Source: Bacteroidota bacterium (GTDB lineage: Bacteria; Bacteroidota; Ignavibacteria; Kapaibacteriales; UBA2268). Taken from it: 58,002 bases of DNA. Of this stretch, positions 3,466-21,328 are shown one piece after another. Where the stretch lies: NCBI GenBank assembly GCA_024278075.1, contig JAJRTW010000098.1, positions 1 through 58,002 on the forward strand. The letters run 5' to 3'. The notes under the pieces are model-generated. The model was not told where the DNA came from and ran no database searches. It was given only the letters and a program-made list of their open reading frames with translations. Numbering within the stretch: position 1 is the stretch's first letter; every line of letters starts with the position of its first letter. The position numbers and the translations under genes are program-made.

Positions 3466-5349
3466 CTACTTCTTCTTTCTTTTCGCTGATTTCTTTTTCC
3501 TGTAGTTCGGGTCAATCTCAATATCATTCTTCGACCCCGGGGCGGAACGCCCTTGTGATGCAGCTATATCCTGTGCTTCGCGCATTTTCTTCTGGAACCA
3601 CCCTTCTTTCTTTGGCGATTTCTTTAATGTCTCGAGCGTTGGCCTGTTTTTGGAGAAATTATTGATGTATACTTGCTGGATAATGCTCAATAAATTGAAC
3701 ATGAAATAATATAAATTTAATCCCGACGGAAAATAGGAGAACATCAGCGTGAACATAACCGGCATCATATATATCATCGCCTTCTGGCGCGGGTCGGTTA
3801 TCGTTAGCTTCTGCTGGATGAACATAGTGATTCCCATCGCTAAGGCAAGGCCGGATATGGAGTTAATGCCCATGATGGAGGTGCCGAAATGAATTATCGA
3901 ATCAGGCATCGACAGGTCGTGAATCCAAAGGCCGAAGTCGGTTTGGCGAAGATCGATTGAGGTGCGGAACATTGTGAACAACGCATACAGAACCGGCATC
4001 TGGAGCAACAATGGCAGGCAGCCGCCGGCAGGATTAATGCCATATTGCGAGTAGAGGTTCATCGTCTCGCGCTGCTGCTTCTTCGTGTCGTCTTTATACT
4101 TATCCCTTAGCTTTTGCATCTCCGGAGCGAGCAGCTTCATTTTCTGAGATGATTTCATCTGCGCAATCGTAAAGGGATATAATAACATCTTCATCACAAT
4201 AGAGAAGATGATAATAGTAATGCCGTAATTTGGTATGAATTTATGAACGAATACAAGCAGCGGCAAAATGAAGAATTCGCCTATCCACCCGATAAACGAC
4301 CAGCCGAAATCTATTGTTTTCTCCAGGCCATATTCCCTTAGATAGTCATATTCAAGCGGGCCTATATAGGTGCGGAATTTCTGAGTAGCAGTGCCGCCAT
4401 AGTAAGGATTTCTGAAAGCCAATGAATATTTCTTGACCATTCCCTGTTTCTTTGCCGCTTCCCTAACTCCGCTCATGTCAATGGTGCCGTCGAACACGCC
4501 GTCCGGCGCCGGAATAATTGCCGCTACGAAGTATTTGGTCTTCACGGCTGCATAATCAATCTTTCCCGTCAGGCTCGACTCGACTCTAAAATCTTCATCG
4601 GCATCAATTGATTCTTCCTCGCCGTTCAAAACCGCAAGGGCCTCGGCCGAGGTGGACTCGTCCACACTGTTATATTCCTGATACCGCAGCCCGCCGGACC
4701 AGGTGAAATTATAACCACGGCGTGGAATTATAGTCTCCATATTCTCCAGCTTCACATCGGTGTCAACGATATAATTATCGCCGAAGAACGTAAATGTTTT
4801 CACAATTCTTTTGCCCGGCTCCACCTCCAGCGAAAGGGTTATGCTTGCTTTTCTGCCGCTGCCGATTCTGATATCATCCTCATCGGTATTCTCAATTTGG
4901 AAGTAAAGGTCGCGGGTGTCTATCCGGCGGTTCTCCATGGTGAGCAATGTCATATACAGCTCGCCTTTCTTCTCCCAAATAAGGTCGGCCGGAGCTTTGT
5001 CCCATTTCAAATATTTTTTCAGTTTCCAGGAGGTCAGCGCCCCGCCGCGGCTGCTGATTTTCGCTGTATACAGGTCGGATTCTATGGTTATAATCCTCTC
5101 CTGCCCTTTGATATGATTAGAGAATATATTGCCGTATTTGAAAAAAGTATTCAGCGAATCATTTGTAAATTCCTTTGCCGGGTCGATTGCGGCTTGGCTC
5201 TGCTCATTGGAATCTAAAACATCTTCGTATTGCCGGGCGGTATCGCTTTTAGTTCTTTGGCCCGGCCTTTCGTTAACGGAATTATACATCATCCAGACAA
5301 TTACAACTGCCGAAATAAGCAGCAAAGCGAGTGTATTTTTTTTATCCAT
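3466..5349 (-). CDS. yidC: Membrane protein insertase YidC (long form with large periplasmic domain)
   Basis: 627-aa ORF. N-terminal TM, large periplasmic domain, then conserved YidC/Oxa1 core (YGITIIIFSIVMKMLLYPFT...KMKLLAPEMQKLRDKYKDD...GINPAGGCLPLLLQMPVLYALF) and a K-rich C-tail. Lies in the rpmH-rnpA-yidD-yidC context. Confidence 0.95.
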   Translation of the reverse strand: MDKKNTLALLLISAVVIVWMMYNSVNERPGQRTKSDTARQYEDVLDSNEQSQAAIDPAKEFTNDSLNTFFKYGNIFSNHIKGQERIITIESDLYTAKISSRGGALTSWKLKKYLKWDKAPADLIWEKKGELYMTLLTMENRRIDTRDLYFQIENTDEDDIRIGSGRKASITLSLEVEPGKRIVKTFTFFGDNYIVDTDVKLENMETIIPRRGYNFTWSGGLRYQEYNSVDESTSAEALAVLNGEEESIDADEDFRVESSLTGKIDYAAVKTKYFVAAIIPAPDGVFDGTIDMSGVREAAKKQGMVKKYSLAFRNPYYGGTATQKFRTYIGPLEYDYLREYGLEKTIDFGWSFIGWIGEFFILPLLVFVHKFIPNYGITIIIFSIVMKMLLYPFTIAQMKSSQKMKLLAPEMQKLRDKYKDDTKKQQRETMNLYSQYGINPAGGCLPLLLQMPVLYALFTMFRTSIDLRQTDFGLWIHDLSMPDSIIHFGTSIMGINSISGLALAMGITMFIQQKLTITDPRQKAMIYMMPVMFTLMFSYFPSGLNLYYFMFNLLSIIQQVYINNFSKNRPTLETLKKSPKKEGWFQKKMREAQDIAASQGRSAPGSKNDIEIDPNYRKKKSAKRKKK

Positions 5350-5434
5350 GTCTTAATAAAGGCGAATCTTTGAATAATTAATTAAAATAGAAAACGTATA
5401 TTTAAAATAGAAAACGAAATAAAACGATAACGAA

Positions 5435-5707
5435 TTAATGATCGCAAACCCCTGCATCCGGCTGAAGGTTTTCGTGCTTGTGGAAAAAACGGAAATTATC
5501 GGGAACCTCATCGATTCCGCCCGGATGAAGCGGGTTGCATTTAACAATGCGCTTTGCCGAGAGCCACAGCCCTTTAGCAACGCCGAATTTTTTGATTGAT
5601 TAATAGGAATATTGCGAGCAAGTCGGGTAGAATCGGCATGATGGCTTAAGAAACGAGGATATAAGTTTCTTATATAATTTAATTAATATAAGCAGTATGG
5701 TTCTCAA
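5435..5707 (-). pseudogene. yidD: Membrane protein insertion efficiency factor YidD, interrupted by one in-frame TAA (5600-5602)
   Basis: Manual minus-strand translation gives (TTG)[70 protein letters not shown]...CDH*. YidD signature CRFxPTCSxY...G...G...RI.KCNPxxxGG is present on both sides of the stop. Canonical position between rnpA and yidC. Not in the ORF track because it is split below 60 aa. Confidence 0.75.
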
Positions 5708-6144
5708 TTCTGACTTCCTTTTATTCTGATTTGGTAATGTGAATGTGCCATTTTGAATAACCTTTCTACTTCAGGCAAAACATCGGCAAGGCGGATCTGT
5801 TTCGGGTGGCCGGGTGCGTTTTTCCAAATAAATATACATTTTTCAAAAGGATACCCTTCGTCGGGAGATCCATATTCCGGGGCGCAAATTCTTATGCTTT
5901 CCCTTAGCAATCGCTTTATTCTGTTCCTTACCACTGCTTTTTTTGCCCGCTTTTTGCCGATGCTCACTCCGTAGTGAACTATTGCCCCTGTAACGGCCTT
6001 ATCCTGGCCGGTGGCATAAAAAGTGCCGGGTGCATAAAAAGTAAATGAAGCGTGGCAATTTTTTTCCCAAAACCTGATGCCGGATTTATAGGCATTTGTA
6101 AAAGAATCGTAACCTTTAACCGGTATTATCTTCAATTGACTCAT
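5704..6144 (-). CDS. rnpA: Ribonuclease P protein component
   Basis: 146-aa basic ORF directly downstream of rpmH. Contains the RNase P protein motif [22 protein letters not shown]. Synteny with rpmH/yidD/yidC. Confidence 0.85.
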
Positions 6145-6326: not shown

Positions 6327-6470
6327 CTATTCGGAGCTGACCGACAGCTTAGCGCGGCCTTTGGCGCGGCGGCTGTTAATTACCTTACGGCCGTTTTTGG
6401 TTGCCATTCTTGCCCTGAAACCGTGTTTATTCCTTCTTTTTCGCCTGCTGGGCTGATAAGTTCTTTTCAT
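6327..6470 (-). CDS. rpmH: 50S ribosomal protein L34
   Basis: Manual translation [47 protein letters not shown] (47 aa), the canonical L34 sequence. Too short for the ORF track. Confidence 0.95.
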
Positions 6471-6716: not shown

Positions 6717-9641
6717 CTACTTCGATATAATTAATTTCCTGATGGCCGTGCGGCCGCTGTCCCAACCAACGATCACCATATATACTCCCGTGGGCAGATT
6801 AGCATTTCCAAGCCCGATAGTGATTTCATTGCCCAATGCCGATTCATTGCCCAATGCCGCCCCGTTCATTTCCAACACATTCTCCCCTAATATCGAACTG
6901 ATTCTAATACTTCTGACAAACCAATCCGATTCACTATGCAGCTGAATTGTAATGAATTCGGAAGCCGGATTCGGGAATATGTACATATTGCCGCTTATAT
7001 CCGATTCAACAGAGGTTTGCCCTTCGCTAATCTTAATATCATCAATATACCACCCGTCATCAGACCTGAACGCATTGGAAGCAAACCGGAACCTGACCAT
7101 TACCGTATCCCCGGGATTGGTGCTAATCTGTATTTGCTCCCTTTTCCAATCCTCATTATCCAGCTGCCCGTTGGCCCAGGGCTGATAGGAATCCTTGTCG
7201 TAGAAAGCGGTTTTCTCCCATGTTAAGCCGTAGTCGCCGGATATTTCCACAATGGCGGAATCTTTCCCGGCTACGATTGCGGCATGCCAAAAGGAAAGGC
7301 TTAGCCTGCCGGTTGGGCTCGCAACGGGAAATATTTGCATTATATCCTTTTGCCGGTTCTTATAATTCCCGTCCGGTGATTCAGTGAGCGAATTCGGCGG
7401 GCTGTGGAAGAACTCGCCGGTGGCCTGAAAATATCCGGCAAATAAATAATTCGGCAAAGGCAGAATATCGAATTCCTCATCGAATGCGGATTCAATCACG
7501 CCCGTATATTCGATGGAATCATTGCTAATTTCGCTCTCCTGCGGCGGAATCTCAGTGCCTTCAAATTCGTCCGTTACTGTTGCATGCACTTTATAATATC
7601 CGCGCTCCGGCAATTGAATTACAAAACTCTTCACCTTGCCGGTGTCCGATTGAGATACTTCAAAAGATTCGAAGAATACATCATCCACAAAAATACTTAC
7701 CGACTTCAAACTAACGAGCGGTGTGACGTTATCGGCACGCAGGTTTGGCAGTTGCATACGGACATCCATCGTATTGACGGCATTGCCGCTCAGGCCTAAA
7801 ATCTCCGGCGGGGCGGGACGGCGGGCCCCTCCGGGATAAGCCGTAACTGTACGGGCTATGCTCGTATCATTATTGCCGGCAGCATAGATTTCATAAACAT
7901 ATTTCTCGAAAGCGGCAAGGCCATCGTCGGTATATTCGGAAATATCGCCGGACAAAACGTCAATCCGCTGGCCGTTTCTGAATAACAGCAGGGAAATATC
8001 ACCGGTATTTAATTGCCGGCCGAAAGTGCTTTCCAGCACCACATCCCAGCCAAGGCGGACTCGCTGCGGGAATTCGGGGAAAACCACGGACGTAAAATTC
8101 TCAACCGGCGAAGGCGCTTTGGTGTCGACGATTGCGGTATATACATCGCTGTCCGAAATATTATCAACGGCATAGCGCATATCAACCCAGGACGGATAAA
8201 TGATGCCATCGTAAAAGGCCATCCCGCTGTAATCCCCGGCAAAGCTGTTGCCCCGGAAAGGGTTCAGCCTTAAATCGCTTGCGAAATCGGCCGCCTGCCT
8301 GTCTGTCCATGTTTCGCCGCCGTCGCTCGAATAGCTTACCCAGCATTCGACCAGCAGGTTCTCCGCATCATTCCGGCTGTCGAAGTACATTATCCCCAAA
8401 TCGCCATTGGTTTGGTCTGTTGCCATCCACGGCCAGAACTGGTCATTGGTTGGGTCGGCACTCACTATAATCGGTTCCGACCAACTATCGCCGCCGTCGG
8501 CCGAGCGCGAGAAGAAAATATCAGGCGGATTGCCGGCGGCCCAGCATACATAGACATAGCCGTTACGCTGCCCGCCGCTAATATCGCAGGAAATGACGGG
8601 ATATGCTTCGGCCCGCACCTTGCCCTTGACCGTATGCTTGAAATTCGGCGGCTCGCCATCGCCGGATATATCTCTGGTTTCGCCGAAAATTTCATAGTTG
8701 TGAATTATTCGCGGGACGGAAAACGTGGCTCCGCCATCGGTGGATTTGGCATATCCCACGCCGTGTTCGATGCCGTGGTTCCATACGGCGTAGACATCTC
8801 CTTCCGGGCCGGTGGCCACAATCGGGAAGCTCTGGCCGAAGGTGGTGTCCTCGGTGCTGCCGGGCAATCTATTGCTAACGGCAACGGGGCTGCTCCAGGT
8901 GCTGCCTTTGTCGGTGGATTTGGACAGCATTATCTGTGTGGCGGAATCGCGCGGAGTCATCCTTTTCCAAGGAATATACAGGTGGTTTTTATAGGGCGAG
9001 AATTGGGAATTATCGACGCTGATGTAATATTTATCTTCGAAGCTGGAGTCCGGTGTCATCTCAGCCGTATGCTCAATTACGACGATATGCGGCTCCCACG
9101 TGGCCCCCTGGTCGGACGTCCGGGCCAAATAAATTCCATTACCCCGAACGAAATCGCTGCCAACCGGAAAAGCGCCATAGACGAGATAGCCGGTGCCGTC
9201 GGAATCGAACACTACCGACGGGTCGTTGCTGGACCGCCAGTTGGGGTGCGGCCTGCCAAGCCCGAGGTTCACCCACGACCTTCCGCCATCACTGGATACG
9301 TAAACATGCGCTTCTGAATTGCCGCGATAATCCACCGCCGAGGATATTAGATTCAGCGGGTTCACAGGATTAACCGCTATCGAGGATTCGTTCTGAATGG
9401 GCGATGAGCCTTCATCCTCCTCGATGGTATTTACATTTAGAAATTTGGGCAGCCGTGGCCCGGGTGCCATTGGGATGAAAAATCCTTTCTTCTGCTGATG
9501 CACAGGCGTCGGGTGGGCGGATTCCATCCATCTTTTATGCGCATCGCTTGCCTGCTTCTTTTCTGACAGCTTGGTTTCATCGCCAGAATAGAGGTTAGCA
9601 AACACGAAAGGAATCAGAAGGGCTAATTTCAAGTATTTCAT
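6717..9641 (-). CDS. Secreted BNR/sialidase-like beta-propeller protein with C-terminal T9SS sorting domain
   Basis: 974-aa ORF. Signal peptide. Six BNR (Asp-box) motifs (SSDGGRSW, TSDQGATW, STDKGSTW, STDGGATF, SADGGDSW, SSDGGETW). C-terminal YIFPNPASEFITIQL...GVYMVIV T9SS type-A CTD. Confidence 0.8.
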   Translation of the reverse strand: MKYLKLALLIPFVFANLYSGDETKLSEKKQASDAHKRWMESAHPTPVHQQKKGFFIPMAPGPRLPKFLNVNTIEEDEGSSPIQNESSIAVNPVNPLNLISSAVDYRGNSEAHVYVSSDGGRSWVNLGLGRPHPNWRSSNDPSVVFDSDGTGYLVYGAFPVGSDFVRGNGIYLARTSDQGATWEPHIVVIEHTAEMTPDSSFEDKYYISVDNSQFSPYKNHLYIPWKRMTPRDSATQIMLSKSTDKGSTWSSPVAVSNRLPGSTEDTTFGQSFPIVATGPEGDVYAVWNHGIEHGVGYAKSTDGGATFSVPRIIHNYEIFGETRDISGDGEPPNFKHTVKGKVRAEAYPVISCDISGGQRNGYVYVCWAAGNPPDIFFSRSADGGDSWSEPIIVSADPTNDQFWPWMATDQTNGDLGIMYFDSRNDAENLLVECWVSYSSDGGETWTDRQAADFASDLRLNPFRGNSFAGDYSGMAFYDGIIYPSWVDMRYAVDNISDSDVYTAIVDTKAPSPVENFTSVVFPEFPQRVRLGWDVVLESTFGRQLNTGDISLLLFRNGQRIDVLSGDISEYTDDGLAAFEKYVYEIYAAGNNDTSIARTVTAYPGGARRPAPPEILGLSGNAVNTMDVRMQLPNLRADNVTPLVSLKSVSIFVDDVFFESFEVSQSDTGKVKSFVIQLPERGYYKVHATVTDEFEGTEIPPQESEISNDSIEYTGVIESAFDEEFDILPLPNYLFAGYFQATGEFFHSPPNSLTESPDGNYKNRQKDIMQIFPVASPTGRLSLSFWHAAIVAGKDSAIVEISGDYGLTWEKTAFYDKDSYQPWANGQLDNEDWKREQIQISTNPGDTVMVRFRFASNAFRSDDGWYIDDIKISEGQTSVESDISGNMYIFPNPASEFITIQLHSESDWFVRSIRISSILGENVLEMNGAALGNESALGNEITIGLGNANLPTGVYMVIVGWDSGRTAIRKLIISK

Positions 9642-9917
9642 TATGTTACTCTAATATCACAGAAAATGTTTTTAATTTCTATTGGTATTTTATTTTATGA
9701 TTTATTTTACGATTGGAAATATAGTTTATTTAAATTTATAAACAAAATAAAAATCAGGTAATGGCGGTGAATTTGACTGTCAATCATAACAACTTTATAT
9801 CTATAGAGATAGCATGATTTCCCATAATAATTAATATTAAGGTTTTTATATTATAGAATTAATTATTATCTTGATTAAGAATATTTTGGCACAAATTTTT
9901 CTTGAAGCGTTTCCTTC

Positions 9918-10532: not shown

Positions 10533-11576
10533 ATGAAATTATCTCTTGATTTAAGAGCGACTTTAACGCAGACTCTCACACCTCAGCAGATTCAATATTT
10601 GAAACTGCTGCAGCTTCCTCTTGTCCAGTTGGAACAGCACGTCCAGCAGGAAATTGAAGAAAATCCGATGCTCGACAACGAACAAGGCGAAGATGATGAA
10701 TTATTCGGAGAATTGGCCGATACCACAACCGAACCGGATGCTCTGGACCCAGCCGATGAATATATCGAATCTTCTGACATTGCCGAGCCGGAAAAACCAT
10801 CTGAATTGATCGACGACACTGCCGACCCTTTTGAGTTCCACAAACTTATCTGGGACGAAGGGCAGGAGTATCAATCCAAATCCAAATCTTCTCAGGGCAG
10901 CGACGATGGCGAAGGCTTCCAGATAAAGGATTCAATATCATTTATTGATGACCTGGTGCAGCAGCTGAGGATGCTCGAGCTTAGCCGGGAGGAATTTTTC
11001 CTGGGCGAAATAATAATCGGCAATATAGATAATGACGGATACCTAAGGCGCGACCTGGGCGAAATAGTTCAGGAGGCAAACGAATCCATCGCAGAGTATA
11101 ATTACGAAGTGAAGAAGAAATCGCTGGTAAGTCAATCCAATGGAAATTCGGATATTGAGGAGAATCCGGCAAGGTCATTCTTATTATCCAGCGAAAGTGC
11201 TGCGGCGTTGGGCAAAGTCCATGCGGCCAACCCCGAATTGCTTGCAAACCTGAGCGAGGAATCATTAAACGAACTCTCAAAATACCATGGCTATGGCGAA
11301 TCGGCTTTTATAGATCAATTATTAGATAATGTTGATATGAATATGGCCGAAAAGGTTCTTGGATTTATCCGCACGCTCGACCCGCCCGGAATCGGTTCCC
11401 GTGATATTCGCGAATGCCTGCTGGCGCAATGCAAGGCAATTGCCAAGCCCAATGCCGCCCGAAAACTTGCTATAAAAGTCCTCGAAGAGGCATACGAACC
11501 TTTTATAAAGAAGCATTACCATGTTATAACCAAGCAATTGGGAATTAGCGATGATTATCTGCGCGAAGCAATCTAA
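10533..11576 (+). CDS. rpoN: RNA polymerase sigma-54 factor, N-terminal part (region I, acidic region II, core-binding domain), ending at an in-frame TAA
   Basis: MKLSLDLRATLTQTLTPQQIQYLKLLQLPLVQLEQHVQQEIEENPMLD is the canonical sigma-54 region I. An acidic linker and core-binding domain follow (IIGNIDNDGYL...LDPPGIGSRDIRECLLAQ). Confidence 0.9.
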   Translation: MKLSLDLRATLTQTLTPQQIQYLKLLQLPLVQLEQHVQQEIEENPMLDNEQGEDDELFGELADTTTEPDALDPADEYIESSDIAEPEKPSELIDDTADPFEFHKLIWDEGQEYQSKSKSSQGSDDGEGFQIKDSISFIDDLVQQLRMLELSREEFFLGEIIIGNIDNDGYLRRDLGEIVQEANESIAEYNYEVKKKSLVSQSNGNSDIEENPARSFLLSSESAAALGKVHAANPELLANLSEESLNELSKYHGYGESAFIDQLLDNVDMNMAEKVLGFIRTLDPPGIGSRDIRECLLAQCKAIAKPNAARKLAIKVLEEAYEPFIKKHYHVITKQLGISDDYLREAI

Positions 11577-11627
11577 GTAATCCGCAGATTAAATCCCAAC
11601 CCGGGCAGTGGCAACTTCCAGCCGGAA

Positions 11628-12272
11628 ATGAATACGGTGATCCCGGATTTCTCGATTTTCAAGGATGAGGATTCGAATGACCTGATGATCTCGGTCAATG
11701 ACAGCCTGCTGCCGGTGCTGCACCTGAACAAAGCTTATGAAAAGCTGAAAAAAGAAACGGCTTATAAAAAATTTAATAAAGACACCCGAGACTGGGTGCG
11801 GAATAAATATGAAGATGCTAAATTCCTTATCCAGGCCATCAAGCAGCGAAAAAGCACTATGCTGAAAGTTATGACGGCTATTGCAGAATTGCAGAGGGAA
11901 TTCTTCTATAAAGGCCATCAAGCACTTAAACCGTTGATATATAAAAATGTTGCCGAAGAAACAGGCCTCGATATTTCCACAATCTGCCGCATTGTGAACC
12001 ACAAATATGTCCAGACCGAATTCGGGACTTATGACCTTAAATTCTTCTTCAGCGAGGCCCTCCCCTCCAACGACGGTGAGGAAATTGCTACAAGAGTTAT
12101 CAAGCAAAAGCTGAAGGAAATCATCGAAAAAGAACCTAAAAACAAGCCCTATAGTGATGACAAATTGTCTGCTTTACTCAAGGAAGCCGGATACCGCGTG
12201 GCCAGAAGAACAGTGGCGAAATACCGCGAGCAAATGAAAATCCCCGTTGCTCGTCTTCGCAAAGAACTATAA
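11628..12272 (+). CDS. rpoN: RNA polymerase sigma-54 factor, C-terminal part (ELH-HTH and RpoN box), same frame as the N-terminal part
   Basis: Contains RKSTMLKVMTAIAELQREFF, the HTH ETGLDISTICRIVNHKYVQT and the RpoN box ARRTVAKYREQMKIP. The 17 codons upstream of the first ATG (11577-11627, VIRRLNPNPGSGNFQPE) are also sigma-54-like and in frame. Confidence 0.9.
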   Translation: MNTVIPDFSIFKDEDSNDLMISVNDSLLPVLHLNKAYEKLKKETAYKKFNKDTRDWVRNKYEDAKFLIQAIKQRKSTMLKVMTAIAELQREFFYKGHQALKPLIYKNVAEETGLDISTICRIVNHKYVQTEFGTYDLKFFFSEALPSNDGEEIATRVIKQKLKEIIEKEPKNKPYSDDKLSALLKEAGYRVARRTVAKYREQMKIPVARLRKEL

Positions 12273-20843: not shown

Positions 20844-21131
20844 CACTAAGATTTAGTGCGTCTCATTGTGCGGCCTCGGGAGTTCACGGCTTTTACCGCC
20901 GTCAAATGCCTGCCCCTTTCGGCGGCTTGCACAGATCAAAGATAAATAAATTCAATTGCAGATACGTTCGGGATATTGGCCCGGAGAAGAACTATAGCCT
21001 TGCCAAAGCGTTACGTATATAACACTCAAAAAGTAATAAATGCTTATTGGTATTGTGGTTACAATAGGTATTCAACGTTAAAAGTGCAAGGAATATAATT
21101 TATTATGCTCAAAAACCTTGCAGAAAATATG

Positions 21132-21236
21132 ACAACCCCCTGCTCGCCTGGCTCATTTCCTCCTTTTTTAAGGGGGAATCTAAGTTATTGTAATTTCAAC
21201 TATTTCCCCCTTAATAAAGGGGGATTTAGGGGGTTG
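21132..21236. repeat. Hairpin-rich intergenic repeat (CCCCT/AGGGG type)
   Basis: Outer inverted repeat CAACCCCCT...AGGGGGTTG. Inner hairpins TTCCTCC-TTTTTTAA-GGGGGAA and TCCCCCTT-AATA-AAGGGGGA. Same sequence style as 18620-18700 and 25845-25870. Confidence 0.45.
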
Positions 21237-21328
21237 TTTTTTCCCTTAATATTGCATAATTACTAAAAATATATCTCAGTCAATTTTTTGCGGAAACCCT
21301 ATATGGCCCTATTATAAGCGGCAATAAT

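Follow-up and report, generated by a model that had tools for sequence, protein, structure and literature searches.

An in-frame TAA in yidD is one of about 35 UAR stops, mostly of apparent G>T type, in a draft Bacteroidota genome

The gene yidD of this Bacteroidota bacterium is interrupted by a TAA at a conserved Glu position, and a genome-wide census places this codon in a set of 35 in-frame stops, all of them TAA or TAG. To judge from sequence comparison, the yidD stop appears to be a GAA>TAA change, i.e., an ordinary kind of one-base nonsense change. Finding about 35 like stops in one draft genome makes it look like part of a genome-wide base-change problem rather than something specific to yidD. 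These stops may well be consensus-level base errors of the draft assembly.

The yidD locus

The window (the whole stretch of 58,002 nucleotides that was analysed) carries yidD between rnpA and yidC, with rpmH upstream and all four genes on the minus strand (Table 1). The earlier note had recognised the canonical rpmH-rnpA-yidD-yidC cluster, and each of its genes is indeed matched by a family profile. The yidD frame has 89 sense codons, one internal TAA and a second TAA at its end. When the internal stop is translated as X, the product matches PF01809 over profile positions 2-67 of 67 (E 8.3e-29, 99.6 bits for a cut-off of 27) and TIGR00278 (E 1.3e-23, 82.6 bits for a cut-off of 40). A chance match is ruled out by the 67-position YidD profile, which runs in frame across the stop and thereby bears out the claim that the TAA lies inside the conserved core. 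The product starts at the TTG in positions 5705-5707, which overlaps the rnpA stop as had been proposed, and ends in ...CDH at the terminal TAA. The core motif CRFxPTCSxY ... KCxP..GG, as defined in 20 relatives, is in frame here; its second part, KCNPLHPGG, lies in the half of the gene downstream of the stop, where the earlier note had seen it. As the note had also stated, a separate start codon is lacking in this half, whose 54 codons include neither ATG nor GTG nor TTG in frame, and the base that follows the TAA is a T. All details of that description that were put to the test proved correct. The frame is thus not uninterrupted as it should be in a YidD, the break falling near profile position 35.

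Compared with the YidD of the rpmH-rnpA-yidD-yidC cluster of E. coli, reportedly described by Yu and colleagues in 2011 as cited in PMC8082313, the locus has the same gene order, a full-length family match and the Cys-rich core. It differs by the broken frame and by an extra tail of about 21 residues. In most of the 20 relatives the protein ends at ...DPVP, and the tail (window positions 5438-5500) extends past this point. In the 3.74-Mb genome, assembled in 275 contigs, YidD matches were found at this locus only.

Table 1. Location and supporting evidence of the features at the yidD locus and of genes interrupted by in-frame stops. Positions without a contig name are those of the window.
Feature	Position	Strand	In-frame stop	Evidence
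yidC	3466-5349	minus		PF02096, E 5e-59; PF14849, E 3.9e-28
yidD	5435-5707	minus	one internal break	TTG start to terminal TAA at 5435-5437; PF01809 and TIGR00278 with X at the stop
yidD C-terminal half	5438-5599	minus		54 codons including the tail of about 21 residues; YidD profile 37-67 by itself, E 1.6e-10
yidD internal TAA	5600-5602	minus	TAA	Glu conserved here; would derive from GAA by a single coding-strand G>T, which is C>A at base 5602 of the plus strand
yidD N-terminal half	5603-5707	minus		35 codons; YidD profile 2-33 by itself, E 4.9e-12
rnpA	5704-6144	minus		PF00825, E 2.8e-11; TGA stop at 5704-5706 overlaps the yidD TTG
rpmH (L34)	6327-6470	minus		PF00468, E 1.3e-23
rpoN (sigma-54)	10533-12272	plus	TAA at 11574-11576	the stop is spanned by the Sigma54 AID, CBD and DBD domains and lies within the core-binding one
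rpoB (sole copy)	C34:7013-10780		TAA at 9725	stop about three quarters along the gene
mutS	C155:7847-10489		TAG at 8441	Glu position; one TAG confirmed with HMMER
purM			TAA	Glu in 13/14 family orthologs
gene on C119	C119		TAA	Glu in 5/13 family orthologs, both closest included
gene on C242	C242		TAA	Glu in 1/5 family orthologs, the closest one
helicase	C229:10263		TAA	Ser in 10/12 family orthologs
xth			TAG	Gln in 5/5 family orthologs
ppx			TAA	Gln in 3/5 family orthologs
scpA			TAA	Lys in 2/3 family orthologs
phosphorylase			TAA	Asn in 4 and Lys in 1 of 5 family orthologs
IMPase-like gene			TAG	Ser in 3/5 family orthologs
three further sites				residue variable among family orthologs

The comparison with relatives is informative on what the stop replaced. 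The residue aligned with the TAA is Glu in 18 of 20 relatives, with Gln and Asp once each, and the corresponding codons are GAA (11), GAG (7), CAA (1) and GAT (1). Among 37 database homologs the position holds Glu in 27, Gln in 6, Asp in 2 and Leu in 2, in agreement with the Glu, Gln or Leu that the earlier note had named; the nearest yidD known from the protein database shares 66% identity. Given the Glu codons at this site in relatives, a GAA altered by one G>T step is the simplest origin of the TAA. A search of 40 relatives at family and order level found the gene free of stops in every one. This contradicts the possibility, raised in the note as a refutation, that related genomes lack a functional yidD, and it means that a lineage-wide decay is not the cause. 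Taken by itself, the change resembles any ochre nonsense change of the type GAA>TAA, with one G>T where Glu is conserved, both halves intact and in frame, and relatives unbroken. What sets it apart is that there are about 35 such stops in one genome, including one in the sole rpoB, with no TGA and almost no frameshifts.

A genome-wide census of in-frame stops

The earlier note had proposed a genome-wide census of in-frame stops, and this turned out to be fruitful. As a reference we used a complete order-level relative (G026, 2,193,228 bases), whose 9130 ORFs of at least 100 codons were compared with this genome by tblastn. The best HSP was kept per place, resulting in 1447 HSPs and 540,027 aligned residues. 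A candidate was retained if its HSP had no more than two stops and if each flank had at least four identities over 15-20 aligned residues. This gave 45 raw candidates (33 TAA, 9 TAG, 3 TGA), of which 11 were dropped: three in rRNA (C81), two over a tRNA cluster (C34:3031, C34:3091), three in shadow frames or at gene boundaries (C7), and three outside the part of the protein matched by the family (C258:8999, C99:10831, C124:32796). With yidD added, the final set has 35 in-frame stops, i.e., 28 TAA, 7 TAG and no TGA, and about 0.13% of the Glu codons are affected. Beyond the window, the sites include C34:9725, C45:10031 and C224:4277. The reverse census, in which the ORFs of this genome were searched against G026 (1298 HSPs, 475,244 residues), served as control and produced two candidates, both of them dubious TGA in poor alignments. 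Since the control is nearly empty, the signal is a property of this genome rather than of the method.

The 35 sites are not enriched at contig ends (median distance of 5602 versus 3811 bases), and the 9 bases on either side of them contain no shared motif of the kind that programmed read-through would call for. The HSPs contain 7 candidate frame changes, unchecked singly, of which 2 are in RNA-gene regions. The numbers of stops per identity bin (11, 13, 3, 7 and 0) are close to those expected (11.9, 9.5, 6.7, 4.3 and 1.5; chi-square p 0.16). Hence, the stops are spread over the gene-conservation classes in the way that Glu codons are, and selection has not filtered them. A further screen for interrupted genes, based on codon usage and dicodons, missed yidD itself and is only a rough estimate; it showed an excess of TAA between same-frame coding pairs (222, versus 102 TAG and 74 TGA). 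We also compared Asp>Tyr and Gly>Cys replacements at conserved sites as a measure of general G>T change, and this comparison was swamped by the high background divergence.

The interrupted genes, as named by NCBIfam, are functionally diverse. TAA interrupts rpoB, guaB, clpB, murA, lipA, purM, atpF, scpA, sppA and ppx, as well as genes for a PBP4-type carboxypeptidase, a mannose-1-phosphate guanylyltransferase, an alpha-glucan phosphorylase, an aldehyde dehydrogenase and others. TAG interrupts mutS, xth, menB and the genes for a cystathionine gamma-synthase-like enzyme and a sigma-54 activator. The stops in rpoB, murA, guaB, mutS, rpoN, atpF and menB are in sole copies. More precisely, HMMER finds one TAA in rpoB, a gene without any stop in the 39 relatives that have a match, and one TAA in guaB, for which the genome has a single strong match. 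Conservation is low around the rpoB stop, with 6 and 7 identities in its two flanks of 20 residues, and the murA stop lies 17 residues before the end of the alignment. The rpoN stop, which aligns with Glu in G026, is the second in-frame TAA that the earlier note had reported in a conserved gene of the window.

Some interrupted genes have a relative within the bin. The genes purM, lipA and scpA each have an intact duplicate there, 81-90% identical, when only 26 of 824 conserved segments are duplicated overall. Counting about ten more genes, second copies show 77-99% protein identity (C92/C228, C262/C134, C71/C43, C60/C228, C107/C232 and others), and they could be either segmental duplications or co-binned pieces of a sister organism. 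In the one pair that was measured, the copy with the stop is on the longer contig (C228, 29.6 kb, against 10.2 kb for C92). In the other two pairs among purM, lipA and scpA, it is the copy at higher coordinates that carries the stop.

Residues replaced by the stops

Twenty of the 35 stops align with Glu: 15 TAA and 4 TAG in the comparison with G026, and the yidD stop through its 20 relatives. Of the 15 other sites, 12 were typed with orthologs from 5-14 family genomes (Table 1), leaving out C31, C258:849 and C4:12166. Altogether, alignment with these orthologs suggests that about 23 of the 35 stops are Glu codons altered by G>T, with few cases of C>A, C>T or A>T. The set would thus be dominated by Glu without being restricted to it. 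Transition-type stops number two or three, against some 23 of G>T type.

Two aspects of this spectrum bear on the process behind it. The first is the absence of TGA, when codon counts predict about 4.7 GGA>TGA changes under a context-blind G>T process. It fits either a preference for G before A or an intolerance to UGA. A preference for G before A is a property of MutY-type signatures; guanine oxidation favours GG over GA, which would predict more TGA, not fewer. The second is the small number of Ser-derived stops: we count 2, where about 10 would be expected from a strand-symmetric process acting at every GA/TC site, and about 5, a value compatible with the observation, from one limited to GAR/YTC. 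With six sites untyped, this coding-strand asymmetry is suggestive, not robust.

Origin of the stops

With moderate confidence, we attribute the stops to G:C>T:A errors in the consensus of this draft assembly, of the kind associated with oxidised guanine (8-oxoG). The yidD TAA would then be a DNA-level G>T at a GAA (Glu) codon, one of at least 35 scattered UAR stops that would be neither functional alleles nor a decoding signal; the changes would stem from sequencing or assembly rather than from the cells. The real yidD of the cell would have GAA at this position and a normal YidD would be made. We read the stops as consensus errors because they strike essential and dispensable genes alike, come with almost no frameshifts and are absent in relatives. 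Further support comes from their confinement to this assembly and from a related strain in the public sequencing run X1, two contigs of which have a G at position 11574, i.e., GAA in rpoN. A process acting on the DNA also predicts sites of Ser, Gln or Lys type, as observed, which a filter by Glu decoding does not. The stops in the sole rpoB and murA speak against functional knock-outs, and the few frame changes, together with the location of the sites away from contig ends, speak against a sloppy long-read assembly.

The attribution to base errors has its own difficulties. We know of no error process that would alter about 0.13% of the GAR codons in a consensus without introducing indels, which is the weakness of this reading. 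Artefacts of oxidative damage are normally found at low read fractions, below the consensus. Among the public runs, X1 contained only relatives of the source population, at 91-96% identity (no contigs at 99% or above, 10 at 95-99%, 11 at 90-95% and 2 below 90%), and X2 and X3 contained next to nothing. In X1 a contig of 930 bases spans window positions 5006-5934 and with them the yidD site. A search for an independent assembly found none, the exact protein look-up returning a single NCBI record, and a degenerate DNA pattern of the yidD core had no match in metagenome contigs.

It is unlikely, on balance, that the stops reflect genuine G:C>T:A mutations of recent date. On this account the lineage lacks MutY and Fpg and carries a TAG in mutS, a mutation-loaded clone dominated the sample, and yidD is knocked out, leaving a stub of 35 amino acids. 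The repair genes give this account its best argument. In the 13 family genomes searched, this one included, the MutY model has only a weak match (E about 1e-20), presumably of the strength expected from the related glycosylase Nth, whereas all 8 genomes searched from the order's other families have a strong one (E 1e-60 to 1e-70). For Fpg, 3 of 21 genomes had a match, and this one did not. Profile matches thus suggest that the 8-oxoG repair pair MutY and Fpg is missing family-wide, and with such a gap a spectrum rich in G>T would be natural in the family. In line with this, MutY-deficient E. coli show mostly C>A changes (PMC10995721). The TAG in mutS, if real, would mean that mismatch repair is lost. 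Moreover, the cell could plausibly do without yidD, rpoN, clpB, xth and ppx, the genes purM, lipA and scpA have the intact second copies described above, and the rpoB and murA stops lie in a little-conserved stretch and near the end of the alignment, respectively.

Several observations are difficult to reconcile with real mutations. The sole copies of rpoB, guaB, murA, atpF and menB are struck, and the most conserved genes are not depleted of stops, as they would be under purifying selection. The repair gap is family-wide, yet the orthologs examined in 5-14 family genomes per gene are almost all free of stops. The agreement with the 8-oxoguanine spectrum, known from MutY/MutM deficiency in vivo and from oxidative library damage in vitro, extends to the G>T share of the stops but not to the relatives, which have an equal gap and show no such stops. 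Finally, the scarcity of transition-type stops is unlike the spectrum left by a loss of mismatch repair.

A partial decoding of UAA and UAG, mainly as Glu, by an unassembled suppressor tRNA with a UUA anticodon is rather improbable. Both codons would remain terminators and yidD would be translated in full. This possibility is in keeping with the restriction of the in-frame stops to UAR, with the two thirds of them or so that fall at Glu positions, with the conserved, in-frame sequence 3' of each stop, and with the essential single-copy genes struck without a trace of selection. The 20 of 35 stops aligned with Glu are also about what is expected if nearly all of them stood for Glu, as 7058 of the 14,776 GAA codons align with Glu. 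There are eukaryotic codes of this type. The code of peritrich ciliates is NCBI table 30. In the nuclear code of Blastocrithidia nonstop, UAR is read as Glu and UAA also serves as stop (PMC12153298). These codes share with our case the in-frame UAA and UAG at Glu positions and the use of UAA as terminator. They differ in that they belong to eukaryotes, rely on dedicated tRNAs and place many such codons in each gene, whereas here about 0.13% of the Glu codons are concerned, no suppressor tRNA was found, the release factors are normal and a sister strain lacks the change.

The termination machinery looks standard. TAA ends 1017 of the 2235 ORFs of at least 200 codons. In the 146 conserved genes that stop exactly at the last residue of the homolog, the terminator is TAA in 66, TAG in 48 and TGA in 32, so that TAA and TAG together end 114 of them. 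A global reassignment of TAA was rejected on the basis of this normal terminator usage. RF1 (PET...GGQ) and RF2 (SPF...GGQ) are present and free of stops. The tripeptide of RF1, encoded on contig C142:13719-14825, is PET, where PAT or PVT is usual. The same PET occurs in G026, which has no in-frame stops; PET is therefore a trait of the group and unlinked to the stops.

ARAGORN identified 39 tRNAs, with UUC and CUC as the only tRNA-Glu. None of these 39 has a UUA or CUA anticodon, the tta and cta matches obtained at relaxed thresholds do not fold as tRNAs, and no tRNA-Glu paralog was found in the assembly. At a marker completeness of 96.7%, the assembled set lacks Phe(GAA), Val(UAC), Leu(CAA, CAG) and Lys(CUU). 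Since the set is incomplete, a missing suppressor tRNA is no proof of absence, and one could be unassembled. The ends of more than 100 contigs carry a dispersed repeat of about 150-250 bases (e.g., C92:34-244 and window positions 21080-21254, approximately), which probably breaks the assembly. Parts of it are called tRNA-like by ARAGORN at a low threshold.

Apart from the release factors and the tRNAs, partial decoding has against it the GAA of the related strain at the rpoN site, the poor fit of Glu at conserved Ser (10/12) or Gln (5/5) sites, the small fraction of Glu codons involved and the lack of a common sequence context around the stops. The recoding implied by the earlier note is thus not supported by the census, and its interpretation as a whole stands in part. 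That this Kapabacteria-like bacterium is at an early stage of UAR/Glu ambiguity, with about 0.13% of its Glu codons having drifted, seems distinctly doubtful; it would be the first ochre ambiguity in bacteria.

As to an isolated, ordinary nonsense mutation that made yidD alone a young pseudogene, a single base change in a small gene agrees with it, but it is very improbable indeed, the stop being one of 35 like events, several of them in essential genes, and yidD having been kept by all 40 relatives.

Implications

The yidD stop alone is of an ordinary kind, and its value is that of a pointer to dozens of G>T-type stops in a public draft genome. Should they be errors, pseudogene counts, inferences of gene loss and genetic-code screens could not safely rely on the record, which would also exemplify a substitution-only error mode that is worth recognising in metagenome bins. 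If instead the bases are real, there are two options. One is a living population with nonsense codons in essential genes, for which read-through would be required. The other is that this bacterium would provide the first case of ambiguous UAR decoding in bacteria.
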